DNA from: Escherichia coli
GTDB lineage: Bacteria; Pseudomonadota; Gammaproteobacteria; Enterobacterales; Enterobacteriaceae
Direction: 5' to 3' (one strand)
Assembly: GCF_965641715.1 (NCBI RefSeq)
Contig: NZ_OZ282453.1
DNA length: 64,000 nt
The first letter of the stretch is position 1, and each line of letters starts with the position of its first letter. The translations under genes and the position numbers were made by a program. Positions 1-44,931 of the stretch are shown here, one piece after another. The notes under the pieces are model-generated. The model was given only the letters and a program-made list of their open reading frames with translations, did no database searches and had not been told where the DNA came from.

Positions 1-1137
1 GAAGAAGCGGCTGTAGGGATTAAAAAATCCATCGAAGCCGGAACCTCTAAACTGAACGGTTTACCGGTAGTTAACCACGGCGTCGCAGCTTGCCGTCGCC
101 TCACCGAAACCCTGCAAAAACCGCTACAGATCCGCCACGGCACGCCAGATGCGCGTCTGCTGGCTGAAATCTCAATGGCCAGCGGCTTTACCAGTTATGA
201 AGGCGGTGGCATTTCCTACAACATTCCGTATGCCAAACGCGTAACGCTGGAAAAATCGATCCGCGACTGGCAGTACTGCGACCGTTTAATGGGGATGTAT
301 GAAGAACACGGGATCCGCATCAACCGCGAACCGTTTGGCCCACTAACGGGTACGCTGATCCCGCCGTTTATCTCGCACTCTATCGCGATAATCGAAGGCT
401 TGCTGGCGCTGGAACAGGGTGTGAAATCTATCACCGTTGGTTATGGCCAGGTCGGCAGCCTGACGCAGGATGTTGCGGCGATCCAGTCTCTGCGTGAACT
501 TGCACACGAATATTTTCAGAGCTATGGCTATACCGACTATGAATTGAGTACCGTGTTTCACCAGTGGATGGGCGGCTTTCCGGAAGACGAATCGAAAGCG
601 TTCGCTATTATCTCCTGGGGCGCAGCCGTCGCGGGGATGTCTGGTGCCACCAAAGTCATCACCAAAAGTCCGCACGAAGCCTGGGGCATCCCGACTGCCG
701 CTGCCAACATTCAGGGGCTGAAAGCCTCCCGCCAGATGCTCAACATGGTCAATGAGCAGAAATTCCCGCCGTGCCCTGCGGTTGAACTGGAAATTGAACT
801 GATTAAGAGCGAGGTTCGCGCAGTACTGAATAAAGTGTTCGAACTGGGTAATGGTGATATTGCGCGCGGAACGGTGCTGGCATTTGAAGCGGGCGTACTG
901 GATGTGCCGTTTGCGCCAGCCGCCTGCAACGCGGGCAAAATTCTTCCGGTCCGTGACAACACCGGCGCGATACGCGTACTGGAAGCCGGAGCCGTTCCAT
1001 TGCCAAAAGATATTCTCGACCTCCACCACGATTACGTTGCGGAACGCGCACGCTTTGAAGGACGCCAACCGACATTCCAGATGGTTGTAGATGACATCAA
1101 TGCTGTATCCCACAGTAAATTAATAGGAAGACCATAA
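1..1137 (+). CDS. glmE: glutamate mutase epsilon (E) subunit, 5'-truncated by the window edge
   Basis: Frame 1 is open from nt 1 to the stop at 1135-1137; the translation reads as GlmE/MutE-like (from memory) and is followed directly by methylaspartase, as in mut-mal clusters. Confidence 0.8.
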   Translation, partial: EEAAVGIKKSIEAGTSKLNGLPVVNHGVAACRRLTETLQKPLQIRHGTPDARLLAEISMASGFTSYEGGGISYNIPYAKRVTLEKSIRDWQYCDRLMGMYEEHGIRINREPFGPLTGTLIPPFISHSIAIIEGLLALEQGVKSITVGYGQVGSLTQDVAAIQSLRELAHEYFQSYGYTDYELSTVFHQWMGGFPEDESKAFAIISWGAAVAGMSGATKVITKSPHEAWGIPTAAANIQGLKASRQMLNMVNEQKFPPCPAVELEIELIKSEVRAVLNKVFELGNGDIARGTVLAFEAGVLDVPFAPAACNAGKILPVRDNTGAIRVLEAGAVPLPKDILDLHHDYVAERARFEGRQPTFQMVVDDINAVSHSKLIGRP

Positions 1138-2378
1138 TGAAAATAAAACAGGCTCTGTTCACCGCTGGCTACTCCTCATTCTATTTCGATGACCAGCAGG
1201 CGATAAAAAACGGAGCGGGTCATGACGGCTTTTTTTATACCGGGGAGCCGGTAACACAGGGGTTTAACGCCGTTCGTCAGGCCGGGGAGTGCGTATCGGT
1301 ACAGTTGATTCTGGAAAACGGCGCGGTCGCCGTAGGTGACTGTACTGCCGTACAGTATTCCGGGGCAGGCGGTCGCGATCCACTGTTCCTCGCAGAGCAC
1401 TTTATTCCGTTCCTCAACGACCATATCAAGCCATTACTGGTAGGCCGCGATGTGGATGCTTTCCTGCCGAATGCCCGTTTCTTCGACAAACTGCGTATTG
1501 ACGGCAACTTGCTGCATACCGCCGTGCGCTACGGATTATCACAGGCGCTGCTTGATGCTACCGCGCTGGCAACCGGCCGTCTGAAAACTGAAGTGGTCTG
1601 TGATGAATGGCAGTTGCCACGCGTGGCGGAATCCATTCCATTATTTGGTCAGAGCGGCGACGATCGATATATCGCCGTCGATAAGATGATCCTTAAGGGC
1701 ATCGACGTGCTGCCCCATGCGCTGATTAATAACGTCGAAGAGAAGCTGGGCTTTAAAGGTGAAAAACTGCGCGAATATGTCCGCTGGTTGTCGGATCGCA
1801 TTCTAAGCAAGCGCACCAGCGCACGCTACCACCCTACCCTGCACATCGATGTATACGGCACTATCGGTCTGATCTTCGATATGGATCCGCTTCGCTGTGC
1901 GCAATACATCGCCAGCCTGGAAAAAGAAGCGCAAGGCCTGCCGCTCTACATCGAAGGGCCGGTCGATGCCGGTAACAAGCCCGATCAAATTCGCCTGCTG
2001 ACCGCGATTACCAAAGAGCTGACGCGCCTCGGTTCCGGCGTGAAAATTGTGGCCGATGAATGGTGTAACACCTACCAGGATATTGTTGATTTCACTGATG
2101 CTGCCAGTTGTCACATGGTGCAAATCAAAACCCCGGATCTGGGCAGTATTCACAACATCGTCGATGCGGTTCTTTACTGCAACAGCCACAGCATGGAAGC
2201 GTACCAGGGCGGCACCTGCAATGAAACTGATGTCAGTGCCCGCACCTGTGTCCACGTCGCCCTTGCCGCTCGCCCTATGCGTATGCTGGTAAAACCAGGG
2301 ATGGGCTTTGACGAAGGCCTCGATATTGTCTTCAACGAAATGAATCGTACTATCGCGCTGTTGCAGGCTAAGGATTAA
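1137..2378 (+). CDS. 3-methylaspartate ammonia-lyase (methylaspartase, enolase superfamily)
   Basis: 413 aa ORF; start ATG overlaps the glmE stop (TAATG); length and N-terminus match methylaspartase as recalled. Confidence 0.85.
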   Translation: MKIKQALFTAGYSSFYFDDQQAIKNGAGHDGFFYTGEPVTQGFNAVRQAGECVSVQLILENGAVAVGDCTAVQYSGAGGRDPLFLAEHFIPFLNDHIKPLLVGRDVDAFLPNARFFDKLRIDGNLLHTAVRYGLSQALLDATALATGRLKTEVVCDEWQLPRVAESIPLFGQSGDDRYIAVDKMILKGIDVLPHALINNVEEKLGFKGEKLREYVRWLSDRILSKRTSARYHPTLHIDVYGTIGLIFDMDPLRCAQYIASLEKEAQGLPLYIEGPVDAGNKPDQIRLLTAITKELTRLGSGVKIVADEWCNTYQDIVDFTDAASCHMVQIKTPDLGSIHNIVDAVLYCNSHSMEAYQGGTCNETDVSARTCVHVALAARPMRMLVKPGMGFDEGLDIVFNEMNRTIALLQAKD

Positions 2379-2381
2379 CAA

Positions 2382-3752
2382 ATGGCTCGTTCTTTTAAAG
2401 TCTTATCGCCAACGGCAATCCTCGGGTATGGATTCCCGGAAGAGAGCTTCCGCAAAGCGATGGCAGAATCGCCCGATCTGATCGCCGTTGATGCAGGCTC
2501 TTCCGATCCAGGCCCCCACTACCTCGGGGCAGGCAAACCGTTTACCGATCGCGCAGGGGTCAAGCGCGATCTGCGCTATATGATCACCGCAGGCGTGCAA
2601 AATAATATACCGGTGGTGATCGGAACGGCCGGCGGTTCTGGTGCCGCACCACACCTGGAGTGGTGCCGAGAAATAATTCATGAGATTGCCCAGGAAGAGC
2701 ACCTCTCGTTCTCGATGGCGTTGATCCCGGCAGACGTTGACAAAGCCATCGTCCACCAGGCGCTGGATAACGGCAAAATCACGGCGCTGGAGTTTGTCCC
2801 GCCGTTAACCCACGACGCGATTGACGAAAGTACGTATATCGTCGCGCAAATGGGCATCGAACCCTTCCAGCGGGCGCTGAAAGAAGGCGCGCAAGTGGTG
2901 CTGGGCGGGCGCGCTTACGACCCGGCCTGCTTTGCTGCGCTCCCGATCATGCAAGGCTTTGATGAAGGTCTGGCGCTGCATTGTGGGAAAATCCTTGAGT
3001 GCGCAGCAATCGCCGCAACGCCCGGCTCAGGCTCTGACTGTGCGATGGGCATCATTGATGACAACGGCTTTACGCTGAAGACATTTAATCCGAAGCGTAA
3101 ATTTACCGAAACGTCAGCAGCTGCACACACACTGTATGAGAAATCCGATCCCTACTTCCTGCCAGGACCTGGCGGCGTGTTGAACCTGAAAGGCTGCACA
3201 TTTAAAGCAGTCAATGACGGCGAAGTCTACGTCAGCGGTTCTAAGCATGAAGAAACGCCGTATGCCCTGAAACTGGAAGGTGCACGACGGGTGGGCTTCC
3301 GCTGTCTGACCATCGCCGGAACGCGCGACCCGATTATGATCGCCGGGATCGATAAAATCATCGATGAAGTCAAAACCAGCGTTTCGCGTAACCTGTCGCT
3401 CGACGATGACAGCATTCGCATCAATTTCCACCTGTACGGCAAAAACGGGGTGATGGGAGACCATGAACCGATGCAAACTGCCGGGCATGAGCTGGGGATT
3501 GTCCTTGATGTAGTTGCACCGACCCAGGAAATTGCCAACAGCGTTTGCTCGCTGGTGCGCTCTACCATGCTGCACTACGGCTATGAAAACCGCATCGCTA
3601 CCGCAGGTAATCTGGCGTTCCCGTTCTCCCCTTCTGATATCCAGGGCGGGCCGGTATACGAATTTTCCATATATCACCTGATTGAAGCCAACGACGCTCT
3701 GCGTTTTGATTTCCATATTGAACAGGTGACGCCAGAAGGAGTTCAGGCATGA
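2382..3752 (+). CDS. DUF1446 (AtuA-like) family protein, function unknown
   Basis: 456 aa ORF 3 nt after methylaspartase; family assignment from memory of AtuA-like proteins and needs an HMM check. Confidence 0.65.
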   Translation: MARSFKVLSPTAILGYGFPEESFRKAMAESPDLIAVDAGSSDPGPHYLGAGKPFTDRAGVKRDLRYMITAGVQNNIPVVIGTAGGSGAAPHLEWCREIIHEIAQEEHLSFSMALIPADVDKAIVHQALDNGKITALEFVPPLTHDAIDESTYIVAQMGIEPFQRALKEGAQVVLGGRAYDPACFAALPIMQGFDEGLALHCGKILECAAIAATPGSGSDCAMGIIDDNGFTLKTFNPKRKFTETSAAAHTLYEKSDPYFLPGPGGVLNLKGCTFKAVNDGEVYVSGSKHEETPYALKLEGARRVGFRCLTIAGTRDPIMIAGIDKIIDEVKTSVSRNLSLDDDSIRINFHLYGKNGVMGDHEPMQTAGHELGIVLDVVAPTQEIANSVCSLVRSTMLHYGYENRIATAGNLAFPFSPSDIQGGPVYEFSIYHLIEANDALRFDFHIEQVTPEGVQA

Positions 3753-4066
3753 AACAGTCAATTGTCTCACTGGCGCAAGTCATTCGTTCGAAAAATGCCG
3801 GACCTTACGAACTGGTTTTAGATATTTTATTTAAAACGAAAGAAAACTATGAGCGAGTTAAATCATCAGGGCAATTAACCCCAGAACTGATTGCGCGCTT
3901 ATATCATGTTGAACCAGACTTTATTCATCGTATTGTCTGGTTTGATCCTTCTAACGCAGTAAAAATCGTCATGCCACGAGATATTATCTCCGGGAATGTA
4001 GGTGACAATGATGTCTATGGTGCACAGCAACATGCACCTTTATTAAATATGAGTTTCGATTTGTAA
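3749..4066 (+). CDS. small DUF4387-like protein, usual partner of DUF1446
   Basis: 105 aa ORF whose start overlaps the upstream stop by 4 nt (ATGA), implying translational coupling. Confidence 0.55.
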   Translation: MKQSIVSLAQVIRSKNAGPYELVLDILFKTKENYERVKSSGQLTPELIARLYHVEPDFIHRIVWFDPSNAVKIVMPRDIISGNVGDNDVYGAQQHAPLLNMSFDL

Positions 4067-4149
4067 TAATCCGAATACTTTTAGCCAACTGACATCCCGT
4101 CACTTATTGCAGTTCAACACTTCAGCTATTTGTAAGGTTGTAATAGCAG

Positions 4150-4181
4150 GTAGATGCCTGAATCTCTATTCAGGCATCTAC
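4150..4181 (+). terminator. perfect 14-bp stem hairpin (gtagatgcctgaat-ctct-attcaggcatctac), attenuator or operator candidate
   Basis: Inverted repeat read directly in the sequence between the DUF4387 gene and the transporter gene; downstream tract is only moderately T-rich. Confidence 0.45.
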
Positions 4182-4205
4182 TTCTCCTGATTCTGATTTA
4201 TCGCC

Positions 4206-5507
4206 GTGCACCTGATGGAGGAAAAAATGAAGAAAATAAGTTTAACCACGATGATTCTTTTGGCGCTGGTACTTGGAATGATTATCGGCGTAGTGCTTAA
4301 TAACACTGTTTCACCGGAAACAGCAAAACTCTATGCGCAAGAAATATCGATATTCACGACGATTTTCTTACGACTGATAAAAATGATTATCGCTCCGTTA
4401 GTGGTCTCTACCCTGGTGGTAGGTATTGCTAAAATGGGCGATGCCAAAGCCCTTGGTCGTATTTTTTCTAAAACACTCTTTTTATTTATTTGCGCCTCAT
4501 TGCTGTCAATTGCCTTAGGCTTGATAACGGTAAATTTCTTCATGCCAGGCACAGGAATTAATTTTGTTGCACACGGTGCCGAAACCACAGGAGTGGTCGC
4601 GTCAGAACCCTTTACGCTAAAAGTATTTATTTCGCATGCTTTCCCCACCAGCATTGTCGATGCCATGGCGCACAATGAAATTTTGCAAATCGTGGTGTTC
4701 TCAATTTTCCTCGGCTGTAGCCTGACGGCGATTGGAGAGAAAGGCAGCGCCATCGTTCACGCCTTAGATTCGCTGGCACATGCCATGTTAAAGCTCACTG
4801 GCTACGTCATGCTCTTCGCTCCCCTGACCGTATTCGCTGCTATTTCAGCATTGATTGCTGAACGAGGACTGGCAGTTATGGTGAGCGCCGGGATCTTTAT
4901 GGGTGAATTTTATTTCACCATGTTATTACTTTGGGTGCTGCTTATCGGTCTGGCCATCGTTTATGTCGGCCCCTGCATCAGACGCCTGACCCGCGCCCTT
5001 TCGGAACCCGCCCTGCTGGCATTTACCACATCCAGTTCTGAAGCGGCTTTTCCGGGAACGCTTGAAAAACTGGAGCAATTTGGCGTTTCCCCCAAAATTG
5101 CCAGCTTTGTCTTACCCATTGGCTACTCATTTAATCTCGTTGGATCAATGGCCTACTGCTCCTTCGCCACAGTTTTCATCGCCCAGGCCTGCAATATCCA
5201 TTTATCCATCGGTGAGCAAATCACCATGCTGTTGATCCTGATGTTGACCTCGAAAGGAATGGCTGGCGTACCACGCGCCTCAATGGTGGTTATCGCCGCC
5301 ACGCTCAACCAGTTCAATATTCCGGAAGCGGGGCTGATCTTGCTGATGGGCGTTGATCCGTTCCTTGATATGGGGCGTTCCGCGACAAACGTCATGAGCA
5401 ACGCAATGGGCGCTGCGATGGTGAGTCGGTGGGAAGGCGAACATTTCGGCGAGGGCTGTCGGGGTAAAGCATTAAAACCCAATGAATCGAACGTTGCTCT
5501 GCCCTGA
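4206..5507 (+). CDS. dicarboxylate/amino acid:cation symporter (DAACS, GltP/DctA-like)
   Basis: 433 aa polytopic membrane protein with DAACS-like motifs (…FIAQ…, …GVPRAS…); start may be the internal ATG at 4227 (MKKISLT…). Confidence 0.8.
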   Translation: MHLMEEKMKKISLTTMILLALVLGMIIGVVLNNTVSPETAKLYAQEISIFTTIFLRLIKMIIAPLVVSTLVVGIAKMGDAKALGRIFSKTLFLFICASLLSIALGLITVNFFMPGTGINFVAHGAETTGVVASEPFTLKVFISHAFPTSIVDAMAHNEILQIVVFSIFLGCSLTAIGEKGSAIVHALDSLAHAMLKLTGYVMLFAPLTVFAAISALIAERGLAVMVSAGIFMGEFYFTMLLLWVLLIGLAIVYVGPCIRRLTRALSEPALLAFTTSSSEAAFPGTLEKLEQFGVSPKIASFVLPIGYSFNLVGSMAYCSFATVFIAQACNIHLSIGEQITMLLILMLTSKGMAGVPRASMVVIAATLNQFNIPEAGLILLMGVDPFLDMGRSATNVMSNAMGAAMVSRWEGEHFGEGCRGKALKPNESNVALP

Positions 5508-5614
5508 GGGGGATCTTAAGCAATCAGAAGCCAATGACTACGCATTTTTATAAGCCGGATCAAGAAGTTAGACGGCAATTAAGTAACACTAACGTTTAAG
5601 GTGAAAAGTGAAAT

Positions 5615-7267
5615 ATGTCCAAACCATTTATCTGGCAAGAACCGTTTCTACAAAATAAAGACGGTACAGAATATACATTAATTAGCGATCAACATATTAC
5701 AGTAACGGAATTAGACGGCGAAGAAGTGATAAAAATCGCTCCTGAAGCATTAACGCTGCTTGCCCGGCAGGCATTTTATGAAGCCTCTTTTTTCTTACGT
5801 TCCGCTCATTTGCAACAGGTCGCCAGCATTCTTAACGATCCGCAGGCCAGCAGTAATGATAAATACGTTGCGTTGCAGTTATTACGTAATGCTGAAGTCT
5901 CAGCAAAAGGGGTATTACCCAACTGTCAGGATACCGGCACCGCAACTATTATTGCCAGTAAAGGGCAACAGATATGGACCGGAGGTAACGACGCCGAAGC
6001 CTTAAGCAAAGGCATTTACACCACTTTTCAGGAAAATAATCTGCGCTTTTCACAAAATGCGCCGCTGGATATGTATACCGAAGTCAATACGCAAACCAAT
6101 CTCCCGGCGCAGATTGATATCTGCGCCGTCGCTGGTGATGAGTACCATTTCCTCTGTGTTAATAAAGGAGGCGGCTCTGCCAATAAAGCCGCGCTTTATC
6201 AGGAAACCAAATCCTTATTGCAACCAGAAAAACTGACCGCATTTTTAATCGAAAAAATGAAATCGCTGGGCACCGCTGCCTGCCCGCCTTACCACATCGC
6301 CTTTGTCGTCGGAGGGCTTTCAGCCGATCAAACCTTAAAAATTGCCAAGCTGGCCTCAACGAAATATTACGACAATTTGCCCACCAGCGGAAACGAGCAG
6401 GGACAAGCATTCCGTGATATTGAGCTGGAAAAAGCGTTGCTCGAGGCCAGTCAGCAATTTGGTATTGGTGCACAATTTGGGGGGAAATATTTCGCTCATG
6501 ATATTCGCGTCATTCGTCTGCCGCGTCACGGTGGCTCTTGCCCGATAGCTATGGCGCTCTCCTGTTCTGCCGATCGCAATATCAAAGCAAAAATTAACAA
6601 ACACGGTATCTGGCTGGAAAAACTCGAACACAATCCGGGGCAATATATTCCAGCCTCACTGCGGGAAGAAAATCACGCGCAACATGTACAACTGGATCTA
6701 AACCGTCCGTTGCGTGACGTGATGCTGGATCTCGCCAGATTACCGGTAGGCACCCGCGTGTCGTTAAGTGGTCCCATCGTAGTGGCGCGCGATATCGCCC
6801 ACGCCAAAATAAAAGCGCGGCTGGATAGCGGTGAATCGATGCCGGAGTACCTGAAGCATCATATTGTCTATTACGCTGGCCCGGCGAAAACACCGGAGAA
6901 CATGGCCTGCGGTTCACTGGGTCCAACTACGGGCGGTCGAATGGACGGTTATGTCGATACCTTCCAGGCGGCCGGCGGCAGTCTGGTGATGTTATCGAAA
7001 GGGAACCGCAGCCAGCAGGTCACCGATGCTTGTCACAAACATGGCGGCTTCAATCTGGGAAGTATTGGCGGTGCAGCTGCGTTACTGGCGCAAGAATATG
7101 TCAAAAGTCTGCGTTGCCTGGAATACCCGGAGCTGGGTATGGAAGCGGTGTGGATGATGGAAGTGGAAAATCTGCCCGCATTCATCCTGGTAGATGATAA
7201 AGGCAATAATTTCTTTAGTCTGTTTGAGCAGCAACACCGCTGCGCCAGTTGCCCTGCGGGACATTAA
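5615..7267 (+). CDS. fumD: class I (Fe-S) fumarate hydratase paralog, probable mesaconase/fumarase
   Basis: 550 aa, collinear with and highly similar to E. coli FumA as recalled; context with glutamate mutase and methylaspartase suggests mesaconate hydration. The symbol fumD is from memory of the O157:H7 literature. Confidence 0.8.
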
Positions 7268-7276
7268 GGAAAATGA

Positions 7277-7879
7277 ATGGAAGCGCGAATTTCAACTGAA
7301 CGGCATGTGCAGCGCCAACAGAAATTGAAGGAACAGGTCGATACGCGCGTCGCAGCGGCGATAGAGAAAAAAGGGATCTTGATTGTTTTCACCGGCAACG
7401 GCAAAGGGAAATCCACTGCCGCGTTTGGTACTGTGACGCGCGCGGTGGGTCATGGCAAAACGGTGGGGGTTGCGCAGTACATCAAGGGGCAATGGGACAA
7501 CGGCGAATACAACCTTCTCCAGCCGCTGGGGGTTGAGTTTCATATTATGGGAACCGGTTTTACCTGGGAGACACAGAACCGGCAAGCGGATATCGACGCG
7601 GCGAAAGAGGTCTGGTCGGAAAGCAAACGGATGCTGGCTGACAAGCGTTACGACTTAGTGGTGCTTGATGAGCTGACCTATATGCTGGCTTACCATTATC
7701 TGGATACCGAAGAAGTGATCGCTTCTCTGCAAAACCGCCCGGCACAACAAAGTGTCATTGTCACCGGACGCGGTTGCCACAGTCAGATATTAAAAATGGC
7801 AGATACGGTCAGCGAAATCCGCCCCGTCAAACATGCTTTTGATAACGGCATTCAGGCCCAGCCGGGTATCGACTGGTAA
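7277..7879 (+). CDS. ATP:cob(I)alamin adenosyltransferase (BtuR/CobA/CobO family)
   Basis: 200 aa with a P-loop (GNGKGKSTAAFG) typical of BtuR-type adenosyltransferases; fits the AdoCbl requirement of glutamate mutase. Confidence 0.8.
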   Translation: MEARISTERHVQRQQKLKEQVDTRVAAAIEKKGILIVFTGNGKGKSTAAFGTVTRAVGHGKTVGVAQYIKGQWDNGEYNLLQPLGVEFHIMGTGFTWETQNRQADIDAAKEVWSESKRMLADKRYDLVVLDELTYMLAYHYLDTEEVIASLQNRPAQQSVIVTGRGCHSQILKMADTVSEIRPVKHAFDNGIQAQPGIDW

Positions 7880-7882
7880 TAA

Positions 7883-7914
7883 CTGCGCCTGGCATCCCGC
7901 CAGGCGCAGGTTTT
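7883..7914. terminator. bidirectional intrinsic terminator between convergent genes
   Basis: 11-bp perfect stem (ctgcgcctggc / gccaggcgcag) followed by TTTT, sitting between the adenosyltransferase stop and the LysR stop. Confidence 0.55.
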
Positions 7915-8818
7915 ACATCTCCTGCGGTACGACCGATTTCGCCAGCAACCATTCACGAAATTGCTGCAAGTGCGGTGAGTCAGATTTCTCTTCCTGCCAC
8001 GTCATAATAAAACGATTACCGGTACGAATAGGCACATCACAGGGAATCACCATATCGCCACTATCCAAATCATGTTGAATAGCGAACCGTGGTAACAGCG
8101 CCACGCCGAGATTAGAGCGCACGGCGGCAATCAGCATTGAAAGCAAATCGAAACGTGGTCCGTTGTTGACCAGCGGACTACTAACGCCAGATAAAGCAAA
8201 CCACTCTTCCCAGCCAGTAATACGGGTGCTTTGATGCAGAAGTGGTAACTCAGTAAGCAGTTCTGCCACTGACAGTTTTTGATCGGACATTGCAAGCAAA
8301 CTGCCGCTGCATACCGGCAAAATCTCCTCATCAAAGAGATATTCTACTTCCGCCCAGGGTGCGCAAAAATTTTCGCGCATAATGACAGCATCGTACTCCC
8401 GATTAAGAAAATCGCCGTTATTAGCTAAAGAATGAATATTAACAATAATATCGGGATGTAACTTTGTGAATTCATGTAAATTTGGGATTAACCAGTGGGT
8501 ACTAAAAGTAGGATTAACGGCAAGTTCAATAACCTGAACCGTAGGCTGCCAGGTCATAATGGTATTGGTATCGCGTTCCAGCTTATTTAATGTTTCTTTT
8601 ACTATCCCCAGGTAATACTTCCCTTTATCATTAAGAAAAATGCGTTTTTTAGAGTGTGAAAATAACGGAGTACGTAAAAATTCCTCCAGCGCACTTACTT
8701 GTCTGAATACTGCACTTTGGGTTAACGCTAACTCCTCTGCCGCTCTGGTATAACTTTCATGACGTGCGACGACCTCAAAAGTCACCAGCAGTTCCGTTTT
8801 AGGTATTTTCCCTCGCAT
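7913..8818 (-). CDS. LysR-family transcriptional regulator
   Basis: 301 aa; N-terminal HTH (…FEVVARHESYTRAAEELALTQSAVFRQV…) typical of LysR-type regulators. Confidence 0.85.
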   Translation of the reverse strand: MRGKIPKTELLVTFEVVARHESYTRAAEELALTQSAVFRQVSALEEFLRTPLFSHSKKRIFLNDKGKYYLGIVKETLNKLERDTNTIMTWQPTVQVIELAVNPTFSTHWLIPNLHEFTKLHPDIIVNIHSLANNGDFLNREYDAVIMRENFCAPWAEVEYLFDEEILPVCSGSLLAMSDQKLSVAELLTELPLLHQSTRITGWEEWFALSGVSSPLVNNGPRFDLLSMLIAAVRSNLGVALLPRFAIQHDLDSGDMVIPCDVPIRTGNRFIMTWQEEKSDSPHLQQFREWLLAKSVVPQEM

Positions 8819-9100
8819 AATGCCGTCCCTTAAAAATAGTTTAAACCATCAAAAATACATTACTTATTACGAAGTAATGGTAACCAAAGCAGCAATAAAT
8901 AATTTATAAGAATCATGATTGACATTTATAAACCAGTAAGGCTGGCGTGACAAATATCTTAATCAGATAATAATAATCCGAAAAGCACAGCGCCTTTCGA
9001 ATTATCCGGAATCACATTAAGTGAAAATTATTAAATTGATATCATTTATCATATCTGTGGATATTATGATAAACAATCAACAAAGATTTTATTTTTGATT
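8819..9100. promoter_or_regulatory. AT-rich upstream region of the LysR gene
   Basis: About 280 bp of very AT-rich DNA immediately 5' of the LysR start; no specific motif assigned. Confidence 0.3.
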
Positions 9101-9383
9101 TATAGCATATCCCTCTAAGAATTTTTGCGATGCTGCAATATCCGGGGTAAAGACCCGATCCTGGCTGACAAATGGCACGACTTGACGAAAAGCGGTGAAC
9201 ATCGCTTTTGTTGATTTACTTAACGCTACGGTCAAACGCTGGGAAGCCAGTGCATCAGGTAACGATTCGAAATTCGCCGTCGTTCTTATTCGTGGCTTGC
9301 GGTCGGTTGCGGCAATCCACAGTGGCTGTGGTCATGCAGTCAAGCCTGCAGTCAGATTTCGACCGTGGTTAACCGTTTAAGGC

Positions 9384-9484
9384 ATAAAAAAGGCCATCAT
9401 ACGATGGCCAACCATGTCGAAACCGACAGCCCTTCGCCATTCCTGTAGAGGGAAGCGGCGAGGGCTATTTCTTATTACAGATAT
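9384..9484 (-). ncRNA. sdhX: 3'-UTR-derived sRNA SdhX (RybD) with its intrinsic terminator
   Basis: Lies immediately 3' of the sucD stop on the minus strand; terminator hairpin ggccatcgtatgatggcc followed by a U-run, as at the K-12 sucD 3' end. Confidence 0.6.
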
Positions 9485-10354
9485 TTATTTCAGAACAGTT
9501 TTCAGTGCTTCACCGATATCCGCCAGGCTGCGAACGGTTTTCACGCCTGCGGCTTCCAGAGCAGCGAATTTCTCATCCGCAGTCCCTTTCCCACCGGCAA
9601 TGATGGCACCCGCGTGGCCCATACGTTTGCCTTTCGGCGCAGTCACACCAGCGATGTAACCCACAACTGGCTTGGTAACGTGCTCTTTGATGTACGCAGC
9701 TGCTTCTTCTTCAGCGCTACCGCCGATCTCACCGATCATCACGATCGCTTCGGTCTGCGGATCTTTTTCGAACATTTCAAGAATGTCGATAAAGTTAGAG
9801 CCAGGGATCGGGTCACCGCCGATACCGACACAGGTCGACTGACCGAAACCGTAATCCGTGGTCTGTTTAACCGCTTCATAGGTCAGTGTACCGGAACGGG
9901 AAACGATACCCACTTTACCCGGTTTGTGAATGTGACCCGGCTGAATACCGATTTTGCATTCACCCGGAGTGATAACGCCTGGGCAGTTCGGGCCGATCAT
10001 ACGAACGCCTGCTTCATCCAGCTTCACTTTCACAGTCAGCATATCCAGCGTCGGGATGCCTTCAGTGATGGTGATAATCAGTTTGATGCCTGCGTCGATG
10101 GCTTCCAGAATGGAGTCTTTGCAGAACGGTGCTGGTACGTAGATAACAGAAGCGGTAGCGCCAGTAGCAGCAACAGCTTCACGCACGGTGTTGAACACCG
10201 GCAGGCCGAGGTGGGTAGTACCGCCTTTACCTGGAGTTACGCCACCAACCATTTTGGTGCCGTATGCAATGGCCTGTTCAGAGTGGAAAGTCCCCTGGCT
10301 ACCGGTAAAGCCCTGGCAGATAACCTTGGTGTTTTTATCAATTAAAATGGACAT
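9485..10354 (-). CDS. sucD: succinyl-CoA synthetase alpha subunit
   Basis: 289 aa, [24 protein letters not shown]…. Confidence 0.97.
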
Positions 10355-11520: not shown

Positions 11521-11559
11521 GTGTTCTGTCCATCCTTCAGTAATCGTTATCTTTTAAAC

Positions 11560-11860
11560 CGTAGACCGAATATTTCGTATCGCTCCCGGGTATTGTCGGT
11601 CACCCGTAGGCCTGATAAGACGTGTAAGCGTCGCATCTGGCATCGCTTGTCGGATGCGGCGCGAGCGCCTTATCCGACCTACATCGGTGCTTCCCGTAGG
11701 CCTGATAAGACGTGTAAGCGTCGCATCAGACATCGCTTGTCGGATGCGGCGCGAGCGCCTTATCCGACCTACATTGGTGGTCCCGTAGGCCTGATAAGAC
11801 GCGTCAGCGTCGCATCAGGCTTCAATTGCCGGAGAAGGCGATAATGCCTTATCCGGTCTA
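11560..11860. repeat. BIME/REP array, three ~95-bp units
   Basis: Three near-identical units containing gcctgataagacg…gcgtcgcatc…cggatgcggcg…ccttatccgacctac palindromes in the sucB-sucC intergenic region. Confidence 0.85.
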
Positions 11861-11883
11861 CAGTGCAGGTGAAACTTAAACTA

Positions 11884-16094: not shown

Positions 16095-16217
16095 ACGCCT
16101 GATGCGCTGCGCTTATCAGGCCTACGGGTAATGACTTGTAGGCCGGATAAGGCGTTCACGCCGCATCCGGCACTGGTTGCCTGATGCGACGCTTGCGCGT
16201 CTTATCAGGCCTACGGT
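16095..16217. repeat. REP elements in the sdhB-sucA intergenic region
   Basis: gcctgatgcg…cttatcaggcctac and gccggataaggcg…gcatccggc palindromes. Confidence 0.8.
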
Positions 16218-33559: not shown

Positions 33560-33675
33560 GATGCCTGATGCGACGCTTGACGCGTCTTATCAGGCCTACG
33601 TATTTCCTGCAATTTATTGAATTTGCACAAATTTGTAGGCTGGATAAGGCGTTCACGCCGCATCCGGCATCTGGG
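33560..33675. repeat. REP elements between dtpD and phr
   Basis: gcctgatgcgacgcttgacgcgtcttatcaggcctac and ggctggataaggcgttcacgccgcatccggc. Confidence 0.8.
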
Positions 33676-35621: not shown

Positions 35622-35721
35622 TACTGCTCCTGAACGGTTTACAGGAGTAAGTGTAGACGGCGAAAAGAAAAAACCGCCAGCGTTTCCACTAGCGGTTTTC
35701 AATGTATTCAAAACTCAGCAA

Positions 35722-43331: not shown

Positions 43332-44005
43332 CAAACGTTCTGATTGTTGAAGATGAACAGGCTATTCGTCGCTTTCTGCGCACGGCGCTGGAGGGCGACG
43401 GGATGCGCGTCTATGAGGCCGAAACGCTGCAACGCGGCTTGCTGGAAGCGGCTACCCGTAAGCCAGATTTGATTATTCTCGATCTCGGCCTGCCCGATGG
43501 TGATGGGATTGAGTTTATCCGCGACCTGCGCCAGTGGAGCGCGGTGCCGGTGATTGTGCTTTCCGCACGCAGCGAAGAGAGCGACAAAATCGCCGCGCTG
43601 GATGCCGGAGCGGATGATTATCTAAGTAAGCCGTTTGGCATTGGCGAATTGCAGGCCCGTCTGCGCGTCGCTTTACGCCGCCACTCCGCCACCGCCGCGC
43701 CCGATCCGCTGGTGAAATTTTCCGATGTTACCGTCGATTTAGCCGCCCGCGTGATTCACCGGGGTGAGGAAGAGGTGCATCTCACCCCGATTGAGTTTCG
43801 CCTGCTGGCAGTGCTGCTCAACAACGCCGGAAAAGTGCTCACCCAGCGCCAACTCCTTAACCAGGTGTGGGGGCCAAACGCGGTCGAACACAGTCATTAT
43901 TTGCGTATTTATATGGGGCATCTGCGACAAAAACTGGAGCAGGATCCCGCCCGCCCCCGCCATTTCATTACCGAAACCGGTATTGGGTATCGGTTTATGC
44001 TTTAG
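43328..44005 (+). CDS. kdpE: response regulator KdpE (OmpR family)
   Basis: 225 aa, [31 protein letters not shown]…. Confidence 0.95.
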   Translation: MTNVLIVEDEQAIRRFLRTALEGDGMRVYEAETLQRGLLEAATRKPDLIILDLGLPDGDGIEFIRDLRQWSAVPVIVLSARSEESDKIAALDAGADDYLSKPFGIGELQARLRVALRRHSATAAPDPLVKFSDVTVDLAARVIHRGEEEVHLTPIEFRLLAVLLNNAGKVLTQRQLLNQVWGPNAVEHSHYLRIYMGHLRQKLEQDPARPRHFITETGIGYRFML

Positions 44006-44288
44006 GGGTTGAAATGCCGGATGCGGCGTAAACGCCTTATCCAGCCTACTCATCGTCCCGTAGGCATGATAAGACGCGTCAGCGTCGCATCAGGCATGGC
44101 TCTGTGAATAACGTCGGCAAAAACTGGAAAAAGACCCCGCCCTCGCCATTTCATTACCGAAACCGGTATTGGGTATCGGTTTATGCTTTAGGGGCTGACT
44201 TGCCGGATGCGGCGTGAACGCCTTATCCAGCCTACTCATCGTCCCGTAGGCATGATAAGACGCGTCAGCGTCGCATCAGGCATTGGCA
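43927..44288. repeat. tandem direct duplication (~190-bp period, 2 copies) of the kdpE 3' end plus a REP pair
   Basis: Copy 1 at 43927-44098 and copy 2 at 44117-44288 are near-identical; each carries the last ~80 nt of kdpE followed by gccggatgcggcg…ccttatccagcctac and gcctgatgcgacgctgacgcgtcttatcatgcctac palindromes. Confidence 0.85.
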
Positions 44289-44304
44289 CTCATGGCTAAA
44301 TATT

Positions 44305-44799
44305 TTAATGTGTATTTATCGCTTTCAACTCTTGCTGGCATTTTTCTGACTGGCAGCGTCGCAACTCAATAATCCCGACATGCATCATCGAGCCAATAAA
44401 GCCGCTTTCGCTGACATAATCCTCATTAACTATCGGTCGAGTGCCGGGCTTGCCCTGGCAAACCAGCATAAAAAATGAGGTGTAGCACTGCCAGCCGGGA
44501 TTTAAACCGGCTTTTTCTTGTGCTGACATATCGTGAAGATAAATAAGTTCTTTTTCGTTCCCGCCTGACAACTGCCAGCGGCGGGTATTATCAGGTAAGT
44601 TATCGCTACAACAATTTGTCTTACACCGGGAAGGCGCAATATTTACCGCAATGCTACCCTTTAACCCTCTGGTTTTATCTTTAGGGGTCAGTAACCAGTC
44701 GCCAGCTAATGATGATTGTTCAGGTTGGGCACATGCAGTCAGCAGTAGTGTGGCGGCAATGAATGTTACTCTTACGACCAGACTCCTTTTGGTCTTCAT
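44305..44799 (-). CDS. ybfP: lipoprotein YbfP
   Basis: 164 aa with a lipoprotein signal (…LLLTAC…). Confidence 0.85.
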   Translation of the reverse strand: MKTKRSLVVRVTFIAATLLLTACAQPEQSSLAGDWLLTPKDKTRGLKGSIAVNIAPSRCKTNCCSDNLPDNTRRWQLSGGNEKELIYLHDMSAQEKAGLNPGWQCYTSFFMLVCQGKPGTRPIVNEDYVSESGFIGSMMHVGIIELRRCQSEKCQQELKAINTH

Positions 44800-44849
44800 T
44801 TTGAATTCCCTTGAGCTATTCAGTTTGTTGGCAAAGTGCGCGTTGTTTT

Positions 44850-44885
<36 letters not shown>

Positions 44886-44931
44886 AAATGATGCAAATTC
44901 AATATATTGCACCATCAGGCAGTCATACGTA

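Follow-up and report, generated by a model that had tools for sequence, protein, structure and literature searches.

The stretch of DNA considered here, called the window below, is 64,000 nucleotides of Escherichia coli (assembly GCF_965641715.1, contig NZ_OZ282453.1). It carries sucD, the last gene of the sdhCDAB-sucABCD operon, with sucC, sucB, sucA and sdhBADC upstream in the order known from annotated genomes, and the 3′ UTR of this operon is the small RNA SdhX (Table 1). Beyond SdhX come fragments of two genes, and then the first intact gene, that of a LysR-family regulator, which lies 565 nt past the 3′ end of the sRNA and is read in the direction of sucD. Behind it glutamate mutase, methylaspartate ammonia-lyase and an extra class I fumarase are clustered; glmL and glmS lie past the window start, and the names of glmE, glmL and glmS are those given by PGAP in matching genomes.

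Table 1. Features around sdhX in the window, with the matches to strain W4
Feature	Position	Strand	Basis or remark
Methylaspartate (glutamate fermentation) cluster	1..7879	+	Pfam, PGAP; continues past window start
glmE, 3′ part	1..1137	+	
Methylaspartate ammonia-lyase	1137..2378	+	Pfam MAAL_N, MAAL_C
AtuA-like gene	2382..3752	+	
DUF4387 gene	3749..4066	+	
Dicarboxylate symporter	~4206..5507	+	
fumD, class I fumarase/mesaconase	5615..7267	+	Pfam Fumerase, Fumerase_C
cobO	7277..7879	+	
W4 match: hutH 3′ end through LysR	7802..9226		95%
LysR-family regulator	7913..8818	-	ORF; Pfam HTH_1, LysR_substrate; PGAP
Two hutH (histidine ammonia-lyase) fragments	9089..9282	-	C-terminal 46 aa = aa 511-556 (9092-9229, stop codon below), aa 378-397 (9221-9280); blastn, tblastn vs W4
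W4 match: internal hutH piece	9221..9282		87%
Two RtcB-family gene fragments	9286..9381	+	Convergent with sucD; ~aa 376-398 (9287-9355), C-terminal aa 451-462 (9339-9374); blastn, tblastn vs W4
W4 match: internal rtcB piece	9286..9342		91%
W4 match: rtcB 3′ end, sdhX, sucD	9345..9600		97%
sdhX (SdhX/RybD small RNA)	9384..9484	-	101 nt starting right after sucD stop codon; identity to K-12 b4764
Rho-independent terminator	9386..9409	-	Stem-loop 9409-9392, U-run 9391-9386; terminator scan, fold
Seed UUCGACAUGGU	9411..9421	-	SdhX positions 64-74, core CGACAU 9414-9419; just 5′ of terminator; same as seed in PMC6393394
G62	9423	-	fdoG pairing (PMC6393394); present
5′ hairpin of full-length SdhX	9428..9466	-	SdhX positions 19-57; fold; includes C34
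C34	9451	-	In Escherichia-specific katG-pairing region (PMC6393394); present
sucD	9485..10354	-	ORF; Pfam CoA_binding, Ligase_CoA, Succ_CoA_lig; PGAP in matching genomes

What kind of strain does the window come from? It is 100% identical to O157:H7 over 201 bp, yet 99.2-99.4% identical (Sakai, PV15-279) over about 26 kb, which rules out that it is O157:H7 itself. No complete E. coli genome exceeds 99.1% identity to it over 8 kb, so that the lineage is poorly represented among complete genomes. Compared with O157:H7, kdpE stands beside pgm without speF-potE-speFL and a segment of about 7.8 kb with the rhsC core, ybfC and ISEc1 is missing (~44003-44929 and ~35659-35668); the kdpE-pgm arrangement is common to 248 complete genomes. 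Within the operon, the sucB-sucC spacer (11521-11883) holds two tandem REP pairs at 11570-11853, which match Rfam naRNA4 on the minus strand at 11609-11679 and 11699-11769. Since they take up about 284 bp here against 14 bp in O157:H7, the number of REP copies at this place differs from strain to strain. A further naRNA4/REP match (16141-16211) is located in the spacer past the operon's sucA end, and farther away the minus strand of 33592-33634 is a full-length match to the sRNA ES036 (CssrF) of Rfam, scoring 75.1 bits where 37.6 is the gathering score.

Read from 9484 to 9384, the window is identical to the K-12 ncRNA b4764 (NC_000913.3, 765050-765150) at 100 of 101 positions in a gapless alignment. 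Positions 1-99 are the same, and the sole mismatch, at position 100 (A in the window, G in K-12), is 3′ of the U-tract and outside both the seed and the terminator. The RefSeq annotation of K-12 places sdhX straight after sucD, and the earlier note, which had recognized SdhX at the sucD 3′ end, had drawn its limits exactly as this annotation does. Rfam 15 gave no SdhX match, either at gathering thresholds over the whole window or at E<=10 over 8800-9700, and the family appears to be absent from it. The assignment to SdhX therefore relies on identity to the curated gene of K-12 together with the published defining features. A hit to isrD was discarded as a chance match to the terminator only (17.3 bits, gathering score 37). 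Nor does PGAP annotate anything under the sdhX match in any of the non-K-12 genomes inspected, and with neither PGAP nor Rfam covering it, scans will keep "rediscovering" SdhX. It is to be noted that SdhX here is an already known and characterized regulator, ordinary in E. coli, so that the value of the present results is mostly one of annotation and what is known of its mechanism is unchanged by them. A literature search for SdhX in O157 specifically found no paper. A 2019 article in PNAS by de Mets and coworkers is said to deal with E. coli SdhX.

SdhX, or RybD, has been described as an Hfq-dependent sRNA that arises when RNase E cuts the 3′ end of the sdhCDAB-sucABCD mRNA; its seed, UUCGACAUGGU, sits 5′ of the terminator, and a terminal form of 38 nt suffices for regulation (Miyakoshi et al., 2019 NAR; PMC6393394). 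All the corresponding sequences are found in the window. A terminator scan of the minus strand gave the hairpin GGCCATCGTATGATGGCC followed by TTTTTTAT at 9409-9392, that is, a GC-rich stem of 7 bp, a loop of 4 nt and six U, the type of module that is bound by Hfq. The 101-nt RNA folds at -41.3 kcal/mol, compared with -25 +/- 3.5 for shuffled sequences (z = -4.67, with none of 200 shuffles as stable), and its predicted structure consists of the 5′ hairpin, a weak hairpin of 4 bp over the seed, and the terminator. The scan, the fold and the identity to K-12 thus bear out the earlier statement that the terminator hairpin and the upstream 3′ UTR are intact; divergence was looked for in the seed as well, and the seed is exact from 9421 to 9411. 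A GG/UUU site occurs where one is expected, at 9423/9422. No promoter-like site was found on the minus strand of 8700-9700, which fits biogenesis of SdhX by processing. A role of the same hairpin as a bidirectional terminator for a convergent gene is unlikely, because on the opposite strand it precedes AACCATG and no T-run.

How is sdhX distributed, and what follows it in other genomes? The 101-nt query is present in 5425 of the 5426 complete E. coli genomes, whatever comes after it, and in 4225 of them at >=99% identity. Its retention in the window is therefore to be expected and is not peculiar to this arrangement, so that the earlier note rates its significance too high. Four alternative blocks fill the stretch from sucD and sdhX to cydA, whose right end lies outside the window, and their counts, obtained by separate searches requiring coverage of at least 80% each, add up to all 5426 genomes: mngR-mngA-mngB of the K-12 type (3883 genomes), the scar and methylaspartate arrangement of the window (839), a tetratricopeptide-repeat (TPR) gene and then cydA (547), and an intact convergent RtcB-family gene followed by hut genes (rtcB-hut-methylaspartate, 157). 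Aligned with each other, the four types are identical through the U-tract and diverge 1-3 nt later, at about 9382-9385 of the window, so that the sdhX terminator marks the edge of this four-block locus almost to the nucleotide. Convergent neighbours abut the sRNA: the stop codon of K-12 mngR lies 2 nt past sdhX, and in rtcB-type strains that of rtcB overlaps the last two U of the SdhX tail. The earlier note was thus right that a block different from that of K-12 follows, gene fragments, a LysR gene and the methylaspartate cluster standing where K-12 has convergent mngR. It was right also in putting the junction of core and accessory DNA beyond the sRNA terminator, but not in placing it at ~9100-9380. 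Its term "foreign island" is open to doubt. Both Escherichia whittamii and Escherichia sp. E1V33 have the rtcB-type junction and similar scars at this very site, so the genus has had the block here for a long time, and the G+C content of the block (40-56%) is not strikingly atypical.

Among representatives of all the downstream arrangements, only positions 36, 45-46 and 83 of sdhX vary. Position 83, the loop base of the terminator, is G, A or T among E. coli types while the terminator stem is invariant, and the seed and both stems are invariant in nine sequences covering the four block types. Nearly identical copies with an invariant seed are found in E. albertii, E. whittamii and Escherichia sp. 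E1V33. Within the species, however, the identity of sdhX (97-100%) is not above that of the flanking DNA (99.1-99.4% to the closest genomes), and because the flanks are about equally conserved, intactness alone shows no selection for coupling to acetate metabolism. A natural disruption exists in E. coli FDAARGOS_944, where an IS1 has entered sdhX (locus 5090-5866, at about window 9412). Its 9-bp target duplication, TCGACATGG, is the seed itself, and the element parts the operon transcript from a copy of the seed plus terminator.

The interval between sdhX and the LysR gene can be understood by comparison with strain W4, whose full block reads sucD-sdhX-rtcB-hutU-permease-hutD-hutI-hutG-hutH-LysR-cobO-fumD-symporter-DUF4387-AtuA-like-methylaspartate ammonia-lyase-glmE-glmL-glmS-two hypotheticals-cydA, and whose intact RtcB protein matches Pfam RtcB at 6.7e-95. 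Four pieces of the interval 9089-9381 have their homologues in the hutH and rtcB genes of W4. The interval is therefore debris of the accessory side, and its breaks are internal deletions, of 9,081, 342 and 175 bp or about 9.6 kb in total, the last separating the two RtcB fragments. Judged from these alignments, 9089-9381 is a deletion scar within the accessory block, here a decayed rtcB-hut-methylaspartate block; it lies wholly on the accessory side and holds no core/accessory junction. The same scar is common to the 839 complete E. coli genomes of this arrangement, including the O157:H7 genomes examined. That of Escherichia sp. E1V33 is similar and has the same rtcB-side breakpoint (W4 coordinate 29892), while E. 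whittamii shows a different, independent decay in which a fragment of hutU is kept. A small ORF over the scar (9195-9380, plus strand) was read as a fragment or spurious, and so was an 84-aa "hypothetical protein" that PGAP annotates in strain ECO_1_S on the strand opposite to the rtcB relic. Thus the 300 bp or so left unannotated beside sdhX in strains with the methylaspartate cluster are remains of hutH and rtcB, which show that the fumD cluster was formerly linked to a histidine-utilization module. Degradation of histidine yields glutamate, so such a link between hut and methylaspartate genes would make metabolic sense. The neighbour of sdhX is co-directional with sucD in the window and convergent in K-12 and in rtcB-type strains. 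In the window orientation, read-through of the sdhX terminator would enter the gene of the methylaspartate cluster's regulator.

The target through which SdhX is connected with acetate metabolism is ackA. SdhX UUCGACAUGG can pair with CCAUGUCGAG of K-12 ackA at -2 to +8, giving ten contiguous pairs over the start and second codons (AUG UCG). As ackA lies outside the window, the integrity of this site was read from other E. coli genomes: over -100 to +100, 5407 of 5424 genomes match K-12 at 99% identity or more, and all the genomes listed as far as about nine-tenths down the ranking match it at 100%. Crude duplex energies of -15.7 (target -30 to +21) and -16.7 (longer target) are not discriminating against a background of -11.1 +/- 2.2. 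Since the target site is conserved across E. coli, it may reasonably be inferred that the coupling of TCA-cycle expression to acetate metabolism by SdhX is kept here. We consider it very highly probable that the feature is SdhX, the sucD 3′ UTR, working by the published mechanism; identity, structure, position, seed and ackA site are read from sequence, and processing, Hfq binding and regulation are carried over from K-12 and Salmonella. SdhX would form the tail of the sdhCDAB-sucABCD transcript and end at its own intrinsic terminator (9392-9409 with the U-run). RNase E would then free two species, one of about 101 nt and a short form of some 38 nt starting near the GG/UUU site, to which Hfq would bind via the terminator and U-tail, and pairing of the seed with the start-codon region of ackA mRNA would lower the synthesis of acetate kinase. 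In E. coli, G62 pairs with fdoG, and pairing with katG involves an upstream region that is specific to Escherichia and includes C34 (Miyakoshi et al., 2019); both would act in the same way from the present allele.

Could sdhX be kept here simply as the terminator of the operon and a stabilizing 3′ end of its mRNA, with the regulatory role lost or irrelevant in this strain? The terminator is under constraint on its own, as bacteria from which all of the 3′ UTR is deleted have less SucD and grow less well on acetate (Miyakoshi et al., 2019), and the within-species identity given above, being no higher than that of neighbouring DNA, speaks in the same direction. Against it stand the unchanged seed, G62 and C34 and the conservation of the ackA site across the species, and the allele differs from the experimentally active one of K-12 only by the base after the U-tract; we regard this explanation as very unlikely. 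Another thought is that retention is functional because the adjacent block contains a local target of SdhX, for instance fumD, by analogy with fumB, a class I fumarase gene that Salmonella SdhX represses at the same place (Miyakoshi et al., 2019). The start region of fumD, UAUGUCCAAACC (window 5613-5626), indeed forms 11 of 12 pairs with SdhX GGUUUCGACAUG (positions 61-72) across the start codon. The energy of -12.4 kcal/mol, however, falls within the background of 63 ORF starts of the window (mean -11.1, sd 2.2), at about the 15th best. Base +6 is moreover C, which puts a C:C mismatch into the core seed where a change at +6 abolishes the regulation of fumB (Miyakoshi et al., 2019), and as the short form starts in the middle of the paired stretch, half of the pairs are missing from it. 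Pairing with the start regions of the block genes was in no case above this background, and a local target is highly improbable.

As to the edge of the block, a boundary between the core and a foreign island somewhere within 9100-9380 might be suggested by megablast homology with K-12-type genomes, which ends near 9378, the upper edge of that range, and by the AT-rich character of the region, where no gene is annotated. Such a boundary is extremely improbable against the divergence of all four blocks at the U-tract and the four-piece homology of the scar to W4. One may go further and picture sucD-cydA as a replaceable locus with four states and an exact left edge at the sdhX U-tract, in which the block of the window is an eroded, old Escherichia block leading from histidine to glutamate to mesaconate, and where terminator read-through or SdhX itself could couple transcription of the TCA operon to regulation of the block. 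This whole picture we hold to be unlikely; if it were true, the coupling of the TCA operon and the block would be a link that is absent in K-12.

How does the locus compare with systems already described? Its methylaspartate part is the published FumD/glutamate-fermentation cluster of O157:H7 (Kronen and Berg, 2015; PMC4682846), a paper in which sucD is unmentioned. The window has the same genes in the same order beside sucD, at the identity to Sakai and PV15-279 given above, and its hutH and rtcB relics show it to be a shortened form of the longer rtcB-hut-methylaspartate block. With SdhX of K-12 (b4764; Miyakoshi et al., 2019) the element agrees in position, length, seed, G62, C34, terminator stem and U-tract, and differs in A instead of G at position 100 and in being followed by hutH/rtcB debris and a co-directional LysR gene, not by convergent mngR at a distance of 2 nt. 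With SdhX1 (87 nt) and SdhX2 (38 nt) of Salmonella it would share the origin from the sucD 3′ UTR, release by RNase E, dependence on Hfq and the use of the seed on the first codons of ackA. The window has the Escherichia-type upstream region for katG and G62 for fdoG, which Salmonella does not have, while fumB and yfbV are regulated in Salmonella but not in E. coli. More widely, CpxQ, NarS, GlnZ and MalH are also sRNAs from mRNA 3′ UTRs, built of an operon terminator with a seed upstream of it and released by RNase E, by which transcription of an operon is linked to other mRNAs; they differ from SdhX in their parent genes, seeds and targets.
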